Origin: Candidatus Acidiferrales bacterium
Lineage (GTDB): Bacteria > Acidobacteriota > Terriglobia > Bryobacterales > Bryobacteraceae
Assembly: GCA_035499435.1 (NCBI GenBank)
Contig: DATJYW010000041.1
Coordinates: 4,175-68,174, forward strand
Length of the DNA: 64,000 nucleotides
Direction: 5' to 3'
In this document: positions 55,337 through 63,490 of the stretch, one piece after another
Numbering within the stretch: the first letter of the stretch is position 1
Layout: every line of letters starts with the position of its first letter
Made by a program: the position numbers and the translations under genes
Notes under the pieces: generated by a model
The model's database searches: none
Seen by the model: the letters and a program-made list of their open reading frames with translations, nothing else
What the model was told of the DNA's origin: nothing

Positions 55337-58081
55337 GTGAACGAAGAACTTAGCCGCCGGGCCGAAGAACTCCGCCATGCCGCTTTGAAGCGGGCGCCGG
55401 AGTCGCGCGGAGCCTTTCTCGACGGGGCTTGCGGCGGAGACAGCAACCTGCGGCAGTTGGTCGAAACGCTGATCTCGAAGGAAGAGCACGGCGGCGGCTC
55501 CCTGGTCGGCCGGCAGTTCGGACCGTATCGGATCGTGTCCCTGCTGGGCGCCGGTGGCATGGGTGAGGTATACCGCGCATACGATAGCAAGCTGGACCGC
55601 GACGTCGCCGTCAAGACCCTCCCTGCCGACCTGGCGCGCCACCCGGACCGGTTGGCGCGCTTCCGCCGCGAGGCGCGCACCCTGGCGTCGCTGAACCACC
55701 CCAACATTGCCATGATCCACGGTTTGGAAGAGTCCGCGGACGTGGACTGCCTGGTGCTCGAACTGGTGGAGGGCGAGACGCTTAGCGGTCCGCTGCCGAT
55801 CGCGATCGCGCTCGACCGCGCTGCACAGGTGACAGAGGCCCTGGAAGCGGCCCACGAGAAGGGGGTCATTCACCGCGACTTGAAACCGGCCAATGTCAAG
55901 GTCACCCCGCAGGGCAGGGTGAAGGTGCTGGATTTCGGGCTGGCGAAGGCGATCCAGGAAACCGAGGGAAGTTCGGATCCCTCCGAGACGGCGACCCTGT
56001 CGGGCGTCGGCACAATCGTGGGGCACATCGTCGGCACACCGGGATACATGAGCCCGGAGCAGGCGCGCGGGAACGACGTGGATCAGCGGACGGACATCTG
56101 GGCCTTCGGCTGTCTCCTGTACGAGCTGCTGACGGGCCGGCAGGCGTTCTCGGGCAACACGACCCTGGACACGATCGCCGCTGTGCTGGAGCGTGAACCG
56201 GACTGGCAGGCGCTTCCGGCAAGGGCACCCGCGAAGATCCGCGAGCTGGTACGCCAGTGTCTGCAGAAGGATGCCAGCCGCCGTCTGGGCAGCATCGCGG
56301 AGGCGAAAAGAACCATCGAAGAAGTTCGCAGCGCGCGAAGCCACCGGCCTGTCGTAGCTCTCGCGGCCGCGGGGCTGGCGCTGGTCGCGGCTGGCGCGGT
56401 TTTCTGGCCGCGCGGCCCGGCGCGCCCGCCGGACCGTTCGGAGTGGGTTCCACTGACCAAGTTTCCCGATCCCGTGAGCCAGCCGGCGTTTTCGCCGGAC
56501 GGACGAATGCTCGCGTTCGTGCGCGGTCCGCGGACCACCCAGGGGCTGGGCCAGATCTACGTGAAACAACTGCCGGATGGCGAGCCGTTGCAACTGACTC
56601 ACGACAACCTACGGAAGGAGTCGCCGACTTTTTCGCCGGATGGCGCGCGCGTGGCATACAGCGTGGTAGACGCGCAGTTCAGCCATCAGACCTGGATTGT
56701 GCCGGTGACTGGAGGAGAGCCGCGGCCGTGGTTTCGTGATGCGTCGGGACTCACGTGGGCGGGGCCGCACTTCCTGCTGTTCTCTGCGATCAAGGTGACC
56801 AATCCCATGGGGATCATGGCCGCCCGGGAGGACCGTACCGGCGAGCGCGACGTCTACATTCCCCGGAATTCCCGCGGCATGGCCACTCGATCCCGGGCAT
56901 CGCCGGACGGGAAATGGGTGCTGGTGGCCGAATTCAATGCGTACGGCAATTGGGACCGGTGCCGTGTGGTTCCGATGGATGGCAGTTCGGAAGGCCGGCA
57001 GGTGGGACCGCCGGGTGCTCCGTGCAGTTCCGGCGCGTGGTCGCGCGACGGCAAGTGGGTGTATGTCGCATCCAAGGCGGGAGGGCTCTATCACATCTGG
57101 CGGCAGCGGTTTCCCGAGGGCGAACCGCAGCAGTTTACCTCGGGCATGACCGAGGAGGAAGGGATCGCGATGGCGCCGGATGGCCGCTCCCTGGTCACCG
57201 CGGTCACACTGGAAAACTCCACCCTCTGGATTCACGATGCCCGCGGCGAGCGCCAGATTTCGGTGCTGGAAGGCAACGCCACCGAGCCGAAATTCTCGCC
57301 GGACGGCAAAAAGCTCTACTACCGGATTGTAAAGGCGGTCGAGGCCGTCGGAACCCGGAGGGATCCGGGCGAGGTCTGGGCCGCCGACGTGGAGTCCGGG
57401 CATTCGGAGCGCATTGCGCCGGGTTTGGAGCCGCTCGTGTTCGACATCTCCGGCGACGGCAAGCTGGTGGCGATGGACGTCCAGGACGGTGAAGGCAAGT
57501 CGCACCTTTGGCTGGCGCCGGTGGACCGGAGTTGGCCGCCCCGGCAGATCTCCGATCTCGAAGGCCACTGGCCCCTCTTCGGCCCGGGCGGCGACATCTT
57601 CTTCCGGCGGGTGGAAGGACCGTCTTCATTCATATACCGCATCCACCCGGACGGGACCGGATTGCAGAAGATGCTGGAGCGGGAGGTATTCCATGCGGGC
57701 GGGGTCTCGCCGGACGGGCGATGGCTCCGGATCTGGGCGCCCTATCCGGGTATGTCCAGCTCGGCGACGCAACTGGTCCCGCTGGATGGAGGCCGCACGA
57801 TCGTGGTTGGCAGCAACACGAAAATGCAGTGGTCTTCGAGCGGCGATTTTCTGTGGATTTCCGCCGGGGCGGTTCCCGACGGGCGGACCTACATGGTTCC
57901 GCTGCGGGGCGGGAAGCTACCGCCGATCCCGGAGGGCGGATTCCATTCCGAAGCGGAAATCGCGGCACTGCCGGGAGCGCGCCGCCTGGATGTCGATGGA
58001 GCGCCCGGCCCATCCGCGGACATCTACGCTTTCGAGCGCCACACGATCCAGCGGAATCTGTACCGCATCCCGATTCCCTAA
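55337..58081 (+). CDS. Ser/Thr protein kinase with TM helix and periplasmic TolB-like beta-propeller
   Basis: GxGxxG LLGAGGMGEVY, catalytic loop HRDLKPANVKV, then DFGLA and GTPGYMSPE. TM helix VVALAAAGLALVAAGAVFW. The C-terminal part has repeated SPDG blades. Confidence 0.85.
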   Translation: MNEELSRRAEELRHAALKRAPESRGAFLDGACGGDSNLRQLVETLISKEEHGGGSLVGRQFGPYRIVSLLGAGGMGEVYRAYDSKLDRDVAVKTLPADLARHPDRLARFRREARTLASLNHPNIAMIHGLEESADVDCLVLELVEGETLSGPLPIAIALDRAAQVTEALEAAHEKGVIHRDLKPANVKVTPQGRVKVLDFGLAKAIQETEGSSDPSETATLSGVGTIVGHIVGTPGYMSPEQARGNDVDQRTDIWAFGCLLYELLTGRQAFSGNTTLDTIAAVLEREPDWQALPARAPAKIRELVRQCLQKDASRRLGSIAEAKRTIEEVRSARSHRPVVALAAAGLALVAAGAVFWPRGPARPPDRSEWVPLTKFPDPVSQPAFSPDGRMLAFVRGPRTTQGLGQIYVKQLPDGEPLQLTHDNLRKESPTFSPDGARVAYSVVDAQFSHQTWIVPVTGGEPRPWFRDASGLTWAGPHFLLFSAIKVTNPMGIMAAREDRTGERDVYIPRNSRGMATRSRASPDGKWVLVAEFNAYGNWDRCRVVPMDGSSEGRQVGPPGAPCSSGAWSRDGKWVYVASKAGGLYHIWRQRFPEGEPQQFTSGMTEEEGIAMAPDGRSLVTAVTLENSTLWIHDARGERQISVLEGNATEPKFSPDGKKLYYRIVKAVEAVGTRRDPGEVWAADVESGHSERIAPGLEPLVFDISGDGKLVAMDVQDGEGKSHLWLAPVDRSWPPRQISDLEGHWPLFGPGGDIFFRRVEGPSSFIYRIHPDGTGLQKMLEREVFHAGGVSPDGRWLRIWAPYPGMSSSATQLVPLDGGRTIVVGSNTKMQWSSSGDFLWISAGAVPDGRTYMVPLRGGKLPPIPEGGFHSEAEIAALPGARRLDVDGAPGPSADIYAFERHTIQRNLYRIPIP

Positions 58082-59178
58082 GCCGGCAGATCAGCCGGCC
58101 CAGCGGCCTCGCTCGTCCACCGTCTTCGCGCCCAGAATGGCGCCTCGGGCCAGCGGCATTCAAGCGAGTAATATTCGGAACGAGTGCGTAAGTATCCAGC
58201 GAAAGCTGCACGATTGTAGGCGTCGTACTGATACGAAGACTCCAACCGGCCGTCCAGTTGATCTAGGGCGGCGGACGCGGCCCTGGAAGCGCCTGTCAGC
58301 GAATGCACCAGACCAAGGCCGGAGAGTGGATCGAAGCTTTGGGCCGAATCTCCGGCTGCGAGCCAGCCGGGCAACGCGGTGTGCGTCCTGCATGTGGATG
58401 CAGCCGAAAACAAGCGGGAGTGCCGCGGGAACGCACCCACCCGCGCCCGGGTGAGCGGGGCGTTCGAGAGTTGCCGGTCCAGGTAGGCGGAGGTGCGCGA
58501 GCGGCCGTCGGCGTATAGGCAGGCGTCGGTCGTGAAGGTGACCATGTAGCTGCCGCCGGGCAGGAGAGCGGAATAGAACCATCCGGCTTCAGTCGCTTCG
58601 ATCAGGGTGTAGTCGCTCGTCTGGCCGCACGGTGGTGCAACACCCGCGACGGCGATCAGGTGGTCTTGCATCGTGCGCGCGGGCAACCCGGGGATTCCGC
58701 GCGTGCCTCGGCCCGCGGCGTCGATCAGGACCCGGCACCTGAAGGTCGCGCCGGCCGCGGGTCGAATCTCCCAATGCGAGTGCGAACGGCCGCAGGCGAG
58801 GACGGTCGTGTCCGCGCAATACTTCGCGCCGGCCTCACCAGCGGCCGTTCCCAGGAGCCGGTTGAACGCTGCCCGGTCGATATGCCAACCGCTGCCGTAC
58901 GGAGAAAAGAGGAAATCGGTTACGGCGGGCTCCGCGCCGCCCCATGCGGATACGATGCCTGGAGCAGGCCGGTGGTTCTGGGCGAGAAAGGCGTCCAGCA
59001 GGCCCAACTCGGCCAGCACCGGCGAGGCTTGCGGAGGCAGCGTTTCACCGACACAGAACGGGCCCGGCCGGGATTTGTCCAGGACGGCGACCCGGCAGCC
59101 GGCACGAGCCAGCCGGATCGCGGCAGTACATCCTGCCGGCCCGCCGCCGATTACGACTACATCGAAACCGGCCTCCAC
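58078..59178 (-). CDS. LodB/GoxB-like FAD-dependent oxidoreductase (putative CTQ maturation flavoprotein)
   Basis: 366 aa. FAD fold DVVVIGGGPAGCTAAIRLARAGCRVAVLDK and C-terminal WLAAGDSAQSFDPLSGLG. It starts 1 nt after the stop of the lodA-like gene, the same order as the Marinomonas lodAB operon. Confidence 0.6.
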   Translation of the reverse strand: MEAGFDVVVIGGGPAGCTAAIRLARAGCRVAVLDKSRPGPFCVGETLPPQASPVLAELGLLDAFLAQNHRPAPGIVSAWGGAEPAVTDFLFSPYGSGWHIDRAAFNRLLGTAAGEAGAKYCADTTVLACGRSHSHWEIRPAAGATFRCRVLIDAAGRGTRGIPGLPARTMQDHLIAVAGVAPPCGQTSDYTLIEATEAGWFYSALLPGGSYMVTFTTDACLYADGRSRTSAYLDRQLSNAPLTRARVGAFPRHSRLFSAASTCRTHTALPGWLAAGDSAQSFDPLSGLGLVHSLTGASRAASAALDQLDGRLESSYQYDAYNRAAFAGYLRTRSEYYSLECRWPEAPFWARRRWTSEAAGPADLPA

Positions 59179-59179
59179 C

Positions 59180-60748
59180 TCACCCTCTCTGGGTCTCTTC
59201 GTAGCGTCCGTTGGATTCGACGAGGAAGCCCAGCTTGCTCCATCCGGTGAGGATCTGGTCGATGGACATATCGCCCGTGTCCGTGTCGGCGAAGCGCCCC
59301 CATGGGACGTACGTATTCGATCCGGGTTTCAGGACATTCAGAGGCCGCTGGGCGGGCCACCAGACTAGCTCGTCGCCGGCATTGCCGCTTTCGGCGGCGC
59401 AGTCGAGGAAGTCCGACTGCCAGGGCAGCGACATCTGGCTGGTCACATCGCCCGGGTTCATCCGGGAGGAATCCAGACGAAATGGCTCGACGAACGGGAA
59501 GACGTCACGAATCTTCCAACTGGCTTCGATACCAGGATAAAAAGCGGCGCCCACACACGCGTCCAGGGCGGCTCTGGTCAGGCCATCCGGCGTAATCGGA
59601 TCGGCGGGAGAGGGAGCCGTGCCGGGAACCGAGGATCCGGCGGCCCACTGCTGTACCATTTTGAATTGAATCCTGGTGAGCGTGCCGTTCGGGCCGTTCG
59701 GATAGAGATCCGACCACATCTTCGGCATATCGCCTCCACCAGTGCCGGGGTTGCCGGGTGTGGACGACGGAGTGGATAGCTTATCGAAGATACGGCTGCG
59801 AGCCGGCAGAGGCAGGTTGTTCAAAGAGCTGAGCGTGTGGTGGAAGGATGTCGCCGGGTTGAACTGTTGCCTGCCGCGCGCATAAACCCAACGCATATTA
59901 GCCGCGCGGGTCAATAGCGGCAGGATATCGGCGGCGATCGAGGGCTGAAAAGCCGGCTTATTGAACGGATCGAGCGAAGGGTCGCGATCGACCGCGGCCT
60001 GGAACAGCGTATCGTACAGTGTCACTACCACGTGAATGCCCGGCGCGAACTTGGGTGGCGCGCACAAGACCCATGCGCTCGCGACCAAAGGGGTCGAGCC
60101 GTCGTTGAGCCGGACCGTGGCGGTGACCACCCCATCGGCGACGTCATCGTACCAGCCGTCGTGGTTGGCAAAATTTCCGCCGTGAATCGACGTCCCGGTT
60201 GGGGACTTGGATTCGCCGTTGCCGGCGAGGACCAGCAGCCGCCCTTTGTCGTCGGTGGTTGCGGTACCGAGCGTGAGCTGAATGTGCTTACCAAGGAACT
60301 GCTGATCGATGCGGAATTCCTTCGCCAGGCCATTCGCCGCAGACTGGCCGAGATCTTCGAAATTGGGATTCGCTCCTGAAACCGAAACCGGGCCAGGGTC
60401 CAGCTTGAGCTGATCCCGGTTCGCGGTTACCGAAGGATTGCGCGGTCCGGGATTGGGCTCGGCTTTGCCGAAAAACTTGTCGGCGGCGGCCTTGGTATTG
60501 GCCACGTGGACGGTCCACGTGATGGATTGGGCGTTGTCCAAATTGATTTCGGTAGCGGCGCCGGCGGCATCGAAGCCGTAGATGCGGAAGCGCGCCGCCT
60601 GCCGCTTGATTAAGCCATTGGCATCACGGAAACCGCCGGACGGCACGTCGGGATCTGCCGGCCGTTCGGGGCCAATGAAATACCCGGACGGGCTGTTGCC
60701 AAGGCGGGCAACGCCGATCGGTGGAAAGATCTTCACAGACTGAAACAT
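59180..60748 (-). CDS. LodA/GoxA-like quinoprotein amino-acid oxidase (short form)
   Basis: Start ATG 60748. The N-terminus MFQSVKIFPPIGVARLGNSPSGYFIGPE matches the hallmark I-x-P-x-IG-(I/V)-AR-x-GNS start of LodA-family proteins. The C-terminal block LPWQSDFLDCAAE...LVWWPAQRP offers Cys and Trp candidates for the CTQ cofactor. Confidence 0.65.
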   Translation of the reverse strand: MFQSVKIFPPIGVARLGNSPSGYFIGPERPADPDVPSGGFRDANGLIKRQAARFRIYGFDAAGAATEINLDNAQSITWTVHVANTKAAADKFFGKAEPNPGPRNPSVTANRDQLKLDPGPVSVSGANPNFEDLGQSAANGLAKEFRIDQQFLGKHIQLTLGTATTDDKGRLLVLAGNGESKSPTGTSIHGGNFANHDGWYDDVADGVVTATVRLNDGSTPLVASAWVLCAPPKFAPGIHVVVTLYDTLFQAAVDRDPSLDPFNKPAFQPSIAADILPLLTRAANMRWVYARGRQQFNPATSFHHTLSSLNNLPLPARSRIFDKLSTPSSTPGNPGTGGGDMPKMWSDLYPNGPNGTLTRIQFKMVQQWAAGSSVPGTAPSPADPITPDGLTRAALDACVGAAFYPGIEASWKIRDVFPFVEPFRLDSSRMNPGDVTSQMSLPWQSDFLDCAAESGNAGDELVWWPAQRPLNVLKPGSNTYVPWGRFADTDTGDMSIDQILTGWSKLGFLVESNGRYEETQRG

Positions 60749-60898
60749 GGCTCTCAAAGTTCCTTTCTTACGGAGAAAGAGATTTCCCCTCAGGTCGCTC
60801 ACCCTCAACGCGGGGGTTCTAATGACTATAACGAGCAATCTGAAGGAATGGGGAGCCGGACCCAAAAGAAAAGTCCGGGACAGTGGCTTCGGATTTCG

Positions 60899-63490
60899 TC
60901 AAAGATACCGCTGCACGCTTTCCCGGAAACGGGTGTAGACCCAGCTCACGCCCACGAGCAGCGCGCCCAGGACGATGAAGCTGAAGATGCGCGGTAGCGT
61001 ATCCAGATTGCGTAGGTCCCAGGCGAACAGCTTGGCGATGCAGCCGGCGAGCAGGGCGAGGCCGGAAAGCCGCAGGACGCGATCGCGCAGCGGGAATCCG
61101 GCGCCGAGCAGGGCCACGCCTTCCAGGCCCCAGGAGATGGTGAGCATGCTGCCGCTGACCTCGTGGTAGATGAGCGCGGCAGCCAGTCCGGCGGTTATCA
61201 GCGAATAGTAGAGGCGGTCCAGGGTGCCGCGCTCGCGTCGGAGCAGGATCGCGCCGTAAGCGGCAATCACCGGGATGACGCTCAGCATCACCTGCGCCGA
61301 CTCGAAGTCGACCACGGCGCAGCGTATAAACACCGCTGCGGCCACGATGATCGCCTGCACATTCAGGGCGCGCGGCCGAAACTCGGCCAGCGCAATCGCG
61401 GCCAACGCCCACGCGGGACTGATCGCGGCCTTGGGCAGGAGCGCCGCGAGGCCGGCCAGGAGGAACAGCGTGCCGGGGTAAGAGAACACGGCGGCGACAT
61501 GGCCGCGCTCCTCGTGCCGGGATCGATATGCCAGGAGATACGTCAGCGCGGCGGCGATCAGCGCGCGGCGGGTGTCCAGATCGAAGGCGAGAACGCGGAC
61601 CGCTCCCAGCAGGGCCATGAGCCACGCCTGCCAGCGGAACTCGCGGGGAAGATTCAGGAGTCCTGCTTCGAACAGCACAACGGCCAGCGCCAGCCAGCCG
61701 ATGCCGAGATAATCGCCGGGAACCAGCTTCCACATCAGCGCTCCTGACGCGATCGACGCGGCAAGCGACGCCACGAAGCGCACCGCATCGCGCTCCAGCT
61801 CATCGAAGCGGTCCGCGGCGGACCACAGGGTACACTGGACGAACGCATACGACACGGCGGCGCCGATGGCCAGGGCGACTGGCGGATGCGGCGAGAAGAT
61901 CGCCGTAGCAATGGCGCCTGCGATGGCGAGCGCGTAGCCTTGAAGACGGAAGTCCATCTGGCGGCGCCACCAGCCGAAGCCGAACGGAACCAGCGACATC
62001 ACGCTCCACACGCGGCCGCAGGTTTCGATCTTGGCTTCGAACCCGGAGACCAGCGCGGCCAGGCCCACCGCCGCGTAGCCGTAGGCCACATCGGCGGCGC
62101 GCAGTGCGCGGTTCAGGTAGAAGACCGCGGCGGTGGCGGCTGCGACCGGCTCCCACGTGTGCGGCGGAATGTGATTCACCTCGCCGATCACGAGCTGCCC
62201 GGTCTCGACCGCGAACAGGCAGGCAGCCATGCCGCGCAGCCAGCGCGAGCTCCAGCGCACTCCAGCCAGGTAGTAGATCTCGGCCAGTACGAGCAGGGCG
62301 AGCGGCACCCACTGGTCGTGCAGCTTGAGCAGAATGGCAGTGGCGGCGAGCGCGGCATTGAGCGTGACCGCCGGACGCCAGCGGTCCGAACGCACGCGCA
62401 GGACGGTGCTGGCCAGGTAGAGTACAGAGGCTCCGGCGGCGAGCTGCCAAATGTCGTTCGGGGCGGCGTGCTCCCATTTGCCAAGCGAGAGCGCCAGAAA
62501 TCCGAGGGCGTTCAGCGGAAGCAGCCACGGGTCGGCGCGCAGCAGGTCGAAAGTTTCGAAGAGGACCCAGTAAGCCAGGAACAGGCTCTGCGTCTGCCAG
62601 AGCGGCGCGCCAGTGTCCTTGTGGAGACCACAGGTGATGTAGGTGGCAACCAGGCCGAAGATGGCGAACCGCGCCCACTGGTTGCGCCACGCGACATAAA
62701 GCAGCGCGGCGGCCAGCGGGATCAGGGCGAGCACGGCGAAAGTGGTGACATCGCTGATCGCCAGGGTGAAGAACGCGATGAACGCGGCCAGCGCGGTGAC
62801 AGTTTGCGAGCGGTACTTGAGCGAGTGGGCGATCATGCCCAGCGCGACCACCAGCAGCAGCACGGTCGCGACAATCGCGGAATCGAGGATCTTAGCCGCG
62901 GGGACGCCGTACATCGCGTAGGTAGTGAGGTAGAGCGCGGCCCATCCGCCGCCGATCAGGCTATATCCGAAATTGCGAAAGCGCTCGCGCGTCTCCGACC
63001 AGACGCCTCCGCCGAGCATCAGCAGGCTGGTCGCGTAGCTGAGCGCGACGCGGCCGGCAGGGCCGACGTGAGTCCAGGCGTATTGGAGCAGGTAGGCAAG
63101 GCCGACGATGGCCACGAACACGCCGATCTTGTTCAGCCAGTTGCCGCCGATGACGACTTCCCAATCGGTGAGGGTGGGCGCAGGCGCGGGTGCTGCGGCT
63201 TCGGGCTGTGGAGCCGGGCGCGGCGGCGGCAAGACGGGCGGGGCCGGCTCCGGCCCCTCGATCGGCGGACCTAGCGCGGCTTCGCGCGCGGGCGTCGCGA
63301 TCGGCGGCTCCTGAGGTGCGGGCGCCGGTTTGGGCTCGGCGGCCGGACGGGTCCGCGCGTTCCACTCGACACGGCGGACAGCCGCGGTGAGTTCCTCGAT
63401 TCTGTTCTCCATCTGCTGCAAACGCTCGCGCAGATAGAGCCAGCGGATCAGGAGGATGACGATCAGGATGATGAACGTGCCTTCCATCAT
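60899..63490 (-). CDS. DUF2339 family polytopic membrane protein
   Basis: ATG 63490 after GAGGAGG. The layout is an N-terminal TM helix, a coiled-coil LQQMENRIEELTAAV, a Pro-rich linker, DWEVVIGGNWLNKIGVFVAIVGLAYLL, and then many TM helices. Confidence 0.7.
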   Translation of the reverse strand: MMEGTFIILIVILLIRWLYLRERLQQMENRIEELTAAVRRVEWNARTRPAAEPKPAPAPQEPPIATPAREAALGPPIEGPEPAPPVLPPPRPAPQPEAAAPAPAPTLTDWEVVIGGNWLNKIGVFVAIVGLAYLLQYAWTHVGPAGRVALSYATSLLMLGGGVWSETRERFRNFGYSLIGGGWAALYLTTYAMYGVPAAKILDSAIVATVLLLVVALGMIAHSLKYRSQTVTALAAFIAFFTLAISDVTTFAVLALIPLAAALLYVAWRNQWARFAIFGLVATYITCGLHKDTGAPLWQTQSLFLAYWVLFETFDLLRADPWLLPLNALGFLALSLGKWEHAAPNDIWQLAAGASVLYLASTVLRVRSDRWRPAVTLNAALAATAILLKLHDQWVPLALLVLAEIYYLAGVRWSSRWLRGMAACLFAVETGQLVIGEVNHIPPHTWEPVAAATAAVFYLNRALRAADVAYGYAAVGLAALVSGFEAKIETCGRVWSVMSLVPFGFGWWRRQMDFRLQGYALAIAGAIATAIFSPHPPVALAIGAAVSYAFVQCTLWSAADRFDELERDAVRFVASLAASIASGALMWKLVPGDYLGIGWLALAVVLFEAGLLNLPREFRWQAWLMALLGAVRVLAFDLDTRRALIAAALTYLLAYRSRHEERGHVAAVFSYPGTLFLLAGLAALLPKAAISPAWALAAIALAEFRPRALNVQAIIVAAAVFIRCAVVDFESAQVMLSVIPVIAAYGAILLRRERGTLDRLYYSLITAGLAAALIYHEVSGSMLTISWGLEGVALLGAGFPLRDRVLRLSGLALLAGCIAKLFAWDLRNLDTLPRIFSFIVLGALLVGVSWVYTRFRESVQRYL

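Follow-up and report, generated by a model that had tools for sequence, protein, structure and literature searches.

The stretch analyzed here, a 64,000-nucleotide (nt) portion of contig DATJYW010000041.1 from a Candidatus Acidiferrales bacterium (hereafter, the window), carries on its minus strand two adjacent genes that very probably constitute an operon for a compact cysteine tryptophylquinone (CTQ) oxidase of the LodA/GoxA family and its dedicated flavoprotein maturase. The lodA-like gene (59180..60748) encodes a predicted CTQ quinoprotein oxidase of compact form, 522 amino acids (aa) in length, which was recognized through Pfam, an AlphaFold2 model, and Foldseek. The lodB/goxB-like gene (58078..59178) encodes a 366-aa, flavin adenine dinucleotide (FAD)-dependent monooxygenase, the predicted CTQ maturase, which was recognized through NCBIfam. 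The original prediction, made from the letters of the sequence, had proposed such a lodA-lodB arrangement, and the results below both support it and narrow what can be said about its substrate.

The boundaries of the two genes could be placed precisely. The full minus-strand open reading frame (ORF) of the lodA-like gene spans 59180-60865, and an internal ATG at 60748 yields the 522-aa product with the N-terminus MFQSVKIFPPIGVARLGNSPSGYFIGPE. We take this ATG to be the right start, because public gene calls for four independent contigs from metagenomes also chose it and because alignments with homologs of 517-524 aa begin at residues 1-4. The resulting protein is identical to NCBI HTP31043.1. 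At the other end of the gene, the stop TGA (59182-59180) is followed by a lone G (59179) and then by the GTG start of lodB (59178), such that the flavoprotein does begin one nucleotide past the lodA stop, as had been read originally. A Shine-Dalgarno-like GAGAGGG lies 5-11 nt ahead of this GTG, within the 3' end of lodA, and the whole junction (GAGAGGG, TGA, the single spacer, and GTG, as read from the sequence) occupies 59176..59189 on the minus strand. Given this putative ribosome-binding run inside the end of lodA and so close to the lodB start, the two genes are likely translationally coupled.

A compact member of the LodA/GoxA family

Domain and fold searches gave a consistent picture of the first protein. 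Specifically, Pfam LodA_N matched residues 8-229 (8.7e-62, 209.3 bits vs a cut-off of 26.3) and LodA_C matched residues 356-462 (3.1e-23, 82.6 bits vs a cut-off of 25), so the LodA/GoxA-type N-terminus noted at the outset is real, and the models for both LodA domains and for a LodB-type partner, by which it was to be checked, all found their targets. A sequence search of the PDB returned only the L-lysine 6-oxidase LodA of Marinomonas mediterranea (3.3e-40) and the GoxA of Pseudoalteromonas luteoviolacea (PlGoxA; ~1e-32). Structure prediction agreed: an AlphaFold2 model built from 61 homologs reached a mean predicted local distance difference test score (pLDDT) of 89 and a predicted TM-score of 0.92, and all 50 of its Foldseek matches in the PDB at E ≤ 0.001 were LodA or GoxA. 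The LodA matches (3wev at E 2.5e-36) had a query TM-score (TMq) of up to 0.77 and 23-24% identity, and the GoxA matches had a TMq of 0.68-0.75 and 18-20% identity.

Compared with LodA/LodB of M. mediterranea (PDB 2YMW, 3WEU, and 3WEV), the protein shares the same two Pfam domains, the same fold, and the same Asp-x3-Cys and WW motifs, and a flavoprotein gene lies directly 3' in both. It is also much shorter, at 522 aa vs 726 in LodA (~23% identity) and 816 in PlGoxA (~19% identity), just as had been suspected, and it lacks the ~100-residue N-terminal insertion of PlGoxA. As in LodA, there is no signal peptide. The first 55 aa hold no hydrophobic segment (the Kyte-Doolittle 15-residue mean peaks at 0.82), the N-terminus has no twin-arginine motif, and residues 4-15 are modeled, at a pLDDT of ~96, as the opening strands of the LodA_N domain, all in keeping with the original statement that no such peptide could be recognized.

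The residues expected to form the cofactor are present and in register. The block LPWQSDFLDC...LVWWPAQRP holds the codons for Asp446-Phe-Leu-Asp-Cys450 (59399..59413, minus strand), with the Cys450 codon at 59401-59399, and those for Trp463-Trp464 (59357..59362, minus strand), with the Trp464 codon at 59359-59357. In HMMER alignments, Asp446 and Cys450 fall opposite Asp512 and Cys516 of LodA and Asp678 and Cys682 of PlGoxA, while Trp464, the second W of WWPAQRP, falls opposite Trp581 and Trp697, respectively. Asp446 thereby also occupies the position of the catalytic Asp in both enzymes (LodA D512 and PlGoxA D678), for which an alignment had been suggested. The literature assigns the CTQ of LodA to C516 and W581, and a 2015 survey found the CTQ Cys and Trp to be kept in all LodA-like proteins (PMC4417212). 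Across 61 homologs with 45-84% identity to the lodA-like protein, Asp446, Cys450, and Trp464 are invariant (61/61), and WWPAQRP is invariant or almost so. Because Cys450, the predicted thioether partner, and Trp464, the predicted quinone former, align with the CTQ residues of LodA and PlGoxA and never vary among these homologs, the assignment of cofactor residues to this C-terminal block, offered at first as a plausible guess, appears to be correct, and we infer by analogy that CTQ would form between them. The Pfam domains, the fold, the alignment of these Cys, Trp, and Asp residues, and the gene pairing described below establish the lodA-like protein as a member of the LodA/GoxA family.

The flavoprotein partner and its pairing with lodA

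The second protein matched the GoxB model of NCBIfam from residues 6-352 (model positions 2-358 of 358; 217 bits, 3.3e-64), and it matched the LodB (180 bits, 5.6e-53) and QhpG (180 bits, 6.8e-53) models over their full lengths. The GoxB and LodB scores both lie below the equivalog cut-offs of 400, which makes the protein a member of the LodB/GoxB family and not an ortholog of either. Its dinucleotide-binding GGGPAG (residues 11-16, of the form GxGxxG; codons at 59131..59148 on the minus strand, as read from the sequence) and the GD motif of FAD proteins, GDSAQSFDP (residues 276-284), are both in place. In a PDB sequence search, it also matched QhpG, a peptidyl tryptophan dihydroxylase (7ctq), at 8.9e-11; QhpG dihydroxylates an unmodified Trp. 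CTQ formation is known to need LodB or GoxB (PMC7876137 and PMC11951088). The NCBI record of the partner, HTP31042.1, is labeled just “FAD-dependent oxidoreductase” and can be renamed a LodB/GoxB-type CTQ maturase, a small gain in annotation.

Pairing of the two genes recurs well beyond the window. When GTDB was scanned with a single genome for each species, 241 relatives emerged, and in the best 79 non-redundant loci, a LodB-like ORF lay on the same strand and no more than 250 nt downstream of the lodA-like gene in 61; in 4 further loci, the two overlap only in appearance, the longest ORF having been taken. A LodB-family ORF was present anywhere in the locus in 77 of 83. The pair is also found in Methylomonas sp. 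11b, in a Paludibaculum genome, and in two metagenome contigs, and most LodA-like genes of the 2015 survey have an adjacent lodB-like gene (PMC4417212). The full-length maturase matches and this conserved order uphold the lodA-lodB arrangement first proposed.

No neighbor other than lodB proved to be conserved, which defines the functional unit as two genes. Clustering of ORFs across the 83 loci recovered only LodA, LodB, their antisense shadow ORFs, and a NIPSNAP-domain gene, the last from another subclade (11 loci). A conserved third gene was considered and rejected, as Methylomonas and a 1.2-Mb metagenome contig, which hold the two closest complete loci, have mutually unrelated small ORFs directly 5' of lodA, and neither of the genes flanking the pair in the window (a DUF2339 gene and a Ser/Thr kinase gene) was found to recur beside lodA in related loci.

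Proposed mechanism

On the model of LodA/LodB and GoxA/GoxB (PMC11951088 and PMC7876137), the precursor oxidase would fold first, and CTQ would then arise by hydroxylation of Trp464 and its cross-linking to Cys450. The LodB-like FAD monooxygenase would be the source of the enzymatic oxidation steps, completing both the oxygenation of Trp464 and the thioether, with Asp446 predicted to adjoin the cofactor. The mature CTQ would form a Schiff base with a primary amino group of the substrate, an aldehyde or keto product and ammonium would be released, and the reduced enzyme would be reoxidized by O2 to yield H2O2; the part of O2 as electron acceptor is likewise inferred from the characterized enzymes.

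Several observations weigh against this reading. First, the ortholog-level NCBIfam scores of the lodA-like protein are low, at 249 bits vs a cut-off of 750 for GoxA (NF038173) and 205 vs 600 for LodA (NF038172); with both equivalog cut-offs missed, the protein is not an ortholog of LodA or of GoxA. Second, by the boundaries of the alignment blocks, ~200 LodA residues are missing from it (~26 scattered in the N-terminal domain, ~24 in the helical middle, ~22 ahead of the cofactor segment, 51 between the Cys and the Trp, a loop that in LodA contains Lys530, and ~80 at the C-terminus), and hence, its oligomeric state and the closure of its active site may differ. Third, no counterpart of Tyr766/His767 of PlGoxA was found in the alignment. 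Fourth, the QhpG and LodB models score equally for the maturase, such that more than one maturation chemistry would fit. Finally, no sigma-70 consensus promoter turned up in a scan of 57800-61100, and the literature searched holds no characterized member of the compact subgroup. Reviews to 2025 and a 2026 preprint cite LodA and GoxA as the only characterized members and present new lodA/lodB-type operons as routine annotation.

Substrate and alternative readings

The first alternative, that the protein is a short glycine oxidase and the functional equivalent of GoxA, is unlikely, though it draws on real similarities. GoxA and GoxB (represented by PDB 6BYW and 6EER from P. luteoviolacea and by GoxA of M. 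mediterranea) are the best NCBIfam models for the two proteins, with GoxA ahead of LodA for the oxidase, and the operon layout and the equivalent of Asp678 are common to both systems. Further, the spacing from Cys to Trp is 14 residues here vs 15 in PlGoxA and 65 in LodA, and Phe193 aligns with Phe316 of PlGoxA and is Phe in 59 of the 61 homologs, so that, from sequence, the surroundings of the cofactor are predicted to be GoxA-like. Against this, the GoxA score is one third of its equivalog cut-off, the Foldseek identity to PlGoxA is as low as given above, and a Methylomonas protein with 64% identity to ours falls outside group II, whose subgroup IIA is that of GoxA proper, in the 2015 phylogeny. 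The predicted active site also departs from that of GoxA. At the position of LodA Cys448 and PlGoxA His583, the lodA-like protein has Tyr404, and this position is Tyr in 39 and Phe in 20 of the 61 homologs; in addition, the Tyr766/His767 pair is without a detected counterpart. PDB entries exist for PlGoxA mutants at F316, H583 (6vl7), Y766, and H767, which shows that these four were regarded as functional residues. We take them to govern specificity. We likewise take Tyr211 and Cys448 of LodA to be the equivalents of the Phe and His of GoxA, partly from the alignment and partly from published work on the two enzymes.

These departures bear directly on the substrate, which had been described as not predictable from sequence. 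We agree, because both equivalog cut-offs are missed and a Tyr stands at the Cys448/His583 position. Most likely, the substrate is neither L-lysine, attacked at its epsilon position, nor necessarily glycine, as judged from the residues at hand; a specificity unlike those of LodA and GoxA is a reasonable expectation and not a result. Hence, of the earlier designation as an amino-acid oxidase, the assignment to the CTQ-oxidase family stands, while “amino-acid” is an extrapolation, given the failure of the LodA and GoxA equivalog models.

A second alternative, which we regard as improbable, is that the protein carries CTQ but is not an oxidase, and instead passes electrons to a partner in the manner of quinohemoprotein amine dehydrogenase (QHNDH) or serves in a larger redox pathway. 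This would fit the equal QhpG and LodB scores of the maturase and the fusion of compact-core relatives to glucose/sorbosone dehydrogenase (GSDH), multicopper-oxidase plus galactose-oxidase-like, Ferritin-like PF12902, and Haem_oxygenas_2 domains. However, neither the window nor the closest relatives have a cytochrome, a cupredoxin, or another redox partner adjacent to the pair, and both characterized members of the family are oxidases (PMC11951088). The comparison with QHNDH itself is instructive: its gamma subunit (QhpC) shares the CTQ cofactor and QhpG is a homologous FAD monooxygenase, but QHNDH is a dehydrogenase of the periplasm built from three subunits, one of them carrying haem, its small gamma peptide is cross-linked by a radical S-adenosylmethionine (radical-SAM) enzyme, and none of those genes occur here. 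The QH-AmDH_gamma model did not match the C-terminal, CTQ-bearing segment of the lodA-like protein. Separately, in a fused relative (P0131), the CTQ segment (residues 1334-1392) matched the QHNDH gamma model PF08992 weakly (1.7e-6), a hint that the two classes of CTQ enzyme might have related cofactor segments.

A third alternative, that of an L-lysine epsilon-oxidase orthologous to LodA and acting as a generator of antimicrobial H2O2, is very improbable. LodA is the best structural match (by TMq and identity) and the best PDB sequence match, but its equivalog model is missed by a wide count of bits (205 of 600), the 65-residue loop bearing Lys530 is deleted, Cys448 is replaced by Tyr404 and Tyr211 by Phe193, and the protein does not belong to group IA, that of LodA proper.

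Lastly, that a halogenase or monooxygenase with no relation to the oxidase lies next to it by chance is hardly credible and was rejected: Trp_halogenase is its top Pfam match, flavin-dependent halogenases are its top PDB sequence matches, and its NCBI name is generic, but the GoxB, LodB, and QhpG models match over their full lengths at 3e-64 to 7e-53 vs 1.6e-17 for the best halogenase model (CmlS scoring 63 bits vs a cut-off of 900), the 366-aa protein has no WxWxIP halogenase motif, its pairing with lodA-like genes is kept across phyla, and GoxB and QhpG are themselves structurally similar to the halogenase CmlS (PMC7876137).

A compact subgroup within a known family

With a compact CTQ oxidase and its maturase as the preferred reading, its place in the family can be considered. 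The 2015 survey of Campillo-Brocal et al. counted 168 LodA-like genes (481-1413 aa), almost every one of them beside a lodB-like gene, and already included short members of 481-524 aa (PMC4417212). Among the latter is Meth11bDRAFT_4055 (524 aa) of Methylomonas sp. 11b, which has the lodB-like Meth11bDRAFT_4056 (364 aa) as its partner and was itself assigned to group “None”, since it joined none of groups I-V under the bootstrap criterion applied there (PMC4417212). This protein, although from another phylum, shows 64% identity along its whole length to the lodA-like protein, is of the same size, and has the same two-gene order, and the lodA-like protein belongs with these ungrouped short LodA-like proteins. 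The family comprises 2,400 clusters at 50% identity (E ≤ 0.001), or 680 at E ≤ 1e-30, and the compact type of 480-560 aa is frequent among them. The operon is therefore not new; public databases already carry this annotation, the subgroup is large and common in soil Acidobacteriota as well as in other phyla, and the novelty is restricted to membership in an unstudied compact subgroup.

We put at about even the proposal that LodA-like proteins of ~480-540 aa outside groups I-V represent a distinct, “minimal” lineage of CTQ oxidases that act on neither lysine nor glycine and possibly have another oligomeric state. The Tyr or Phe at the Cys448/His583 position suggests the former, and the latter is possible because inter-subunit and C-terminal elements that LodA and GoxA have are missing. 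If so, characterization of the operon would give a third activity for oxidases with a protein-derived CTQ. In any case, the compact two-gene cassette would lend itself well to heterologous expression and substrate screens, with biosensors and antimicrobial H2O2 as possible uses, and the compact form could reveal which parts of the larger enzymes CTQ formation can spare.

The acidobacterial background given in the original prediction rests on the binning of metagenome-assembled genomes (MAGs). The identical NCBI protein is labeled Ca. Acidoferrales (Acidobacteriota, Terriglobia), while a 99%-identical lodA-like copy (on contig DATJYJ010000200.1, locus L008) sits in a MAG labeled Verrucomicrobiia, and one of these two bins is probably wrong. 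An acidobacterial origin of the pair is the likelier, since most of the close relatives (57-64% identity) are from Bryobacteraceae, Paludibaculum, or other Acidobacteriota, alongside Methylomonas. The distribution of compact lodA-like genes over phyla is patchy. Further, the lodA/lodB genes have a GC content at third codon positions (GC3) of 0.74-0.75, vs 0.80-0.84 in four neighboring genes, and the lodA-like gene has a total GC content of 0.617, vs 0.65-0.68 in its neighbors. The lower GC3 and the patchy distribution are compatible with horizontal acquisition of the pair, of which the base composition gives a mild hint, short of proof.

A more distant case comes from an archaeal bin. The 11.9-kb contig DATBFR010000001.1, binned with a Nitrososphaeraceae archaeon, carries a lodA/lodB-like pair (L024, 4366-7188) with 42% and 38% identity, respectively. 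The 2015 survey recorded zero family members in Archaea (PMC4417212), and this pair could be either the product of mis-binning or a real transfer.

Surroundings of the pair and observations on relatives

On its 5' side, the lodA-like gene is preceded by a 150-nt intergenic stretch (60749..60898, minus strand), presumed from its position to be the promoter region, and then by a gene for a DUF2339 membrane protein. A hairpin in this stretch (60856-60878, minus strand), with a 6-bp stem (CCGGAC/GTCCGG), an 11-nt loop, and no T-run, lies just past the DUF2339 stop and may mark the end of that gene's transcription unit. Two further candidate elements were discarded. Rfam gave no glycine or lysine riboswitch, which might have hinted at the substrate, and no other RNA element 5' of lodA at E ≤ 1 in 60600-61100, and none of its elements reached the gathering score in the whole window; the single terminator-like match in 57800-61100 falls within lodA in the wrong orientation and does not exceed chance expectation. 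On the 3' side, the convergent plus-strand neighbor (55337-58081) encodes a 914-aa protein that joins a Ser/Thr kinase to a PD40/Tricorn-like beta-propeller, and its 3' end shares 4 nt with that of the lodB-like gene (58078-58081), an overlap that leaves no space for a terminator between them.

Some relatives show other gene contexts. In the NIPSNAP subclade, which is ~42% identical to the lodA-like protein and drawn from Ca. Angelobacter and Bryobacteraceae, a NIPSNAP-domain ORF lies directly 5' of lodA (4161-4973 in L031, and in ten other loci, L033-L036, L038, and L051 among them); the window has no such ORF. In Paludibaculum (L007, 1877-13505), a lodA/lodB pair with 57% identity is set on one strand amid a gene for a di-haem oxidoreductase (DHOR), two Ferritin-like PF12902 genes, and one radical-SAM gene, which may together represent a cluster of wider redox or biosynthetic function in that organism.

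In other relatives, the compact core is itself part of a longer polypeptide. One set of fusions (P0134, P0135, P0137, L065 6660-8279, and L048 6501-8456) joins it to a GSDH propeller, to Ferritin-like PF12902, VWA, or Haem_oxygenas_2 (PF14518) domains, or to a common C-terminal extension of ~650 aa with no Pfam match. In a Bryobacteraceae MAG, a 1,449-aa ORF (L030, 2085-6434) places the core behind multicopper-oxidase domains and a Kelch propeller resembling galactose/glyoxal oxidase, with a galactose oxidase-like E-set domain, and long ORFs similar to it occur in L021, L023, and L069. As predicted from its domains, the L030 fusion would bring several oxidase modules, two of them with protein-derived cofactors, into one polypeptide.

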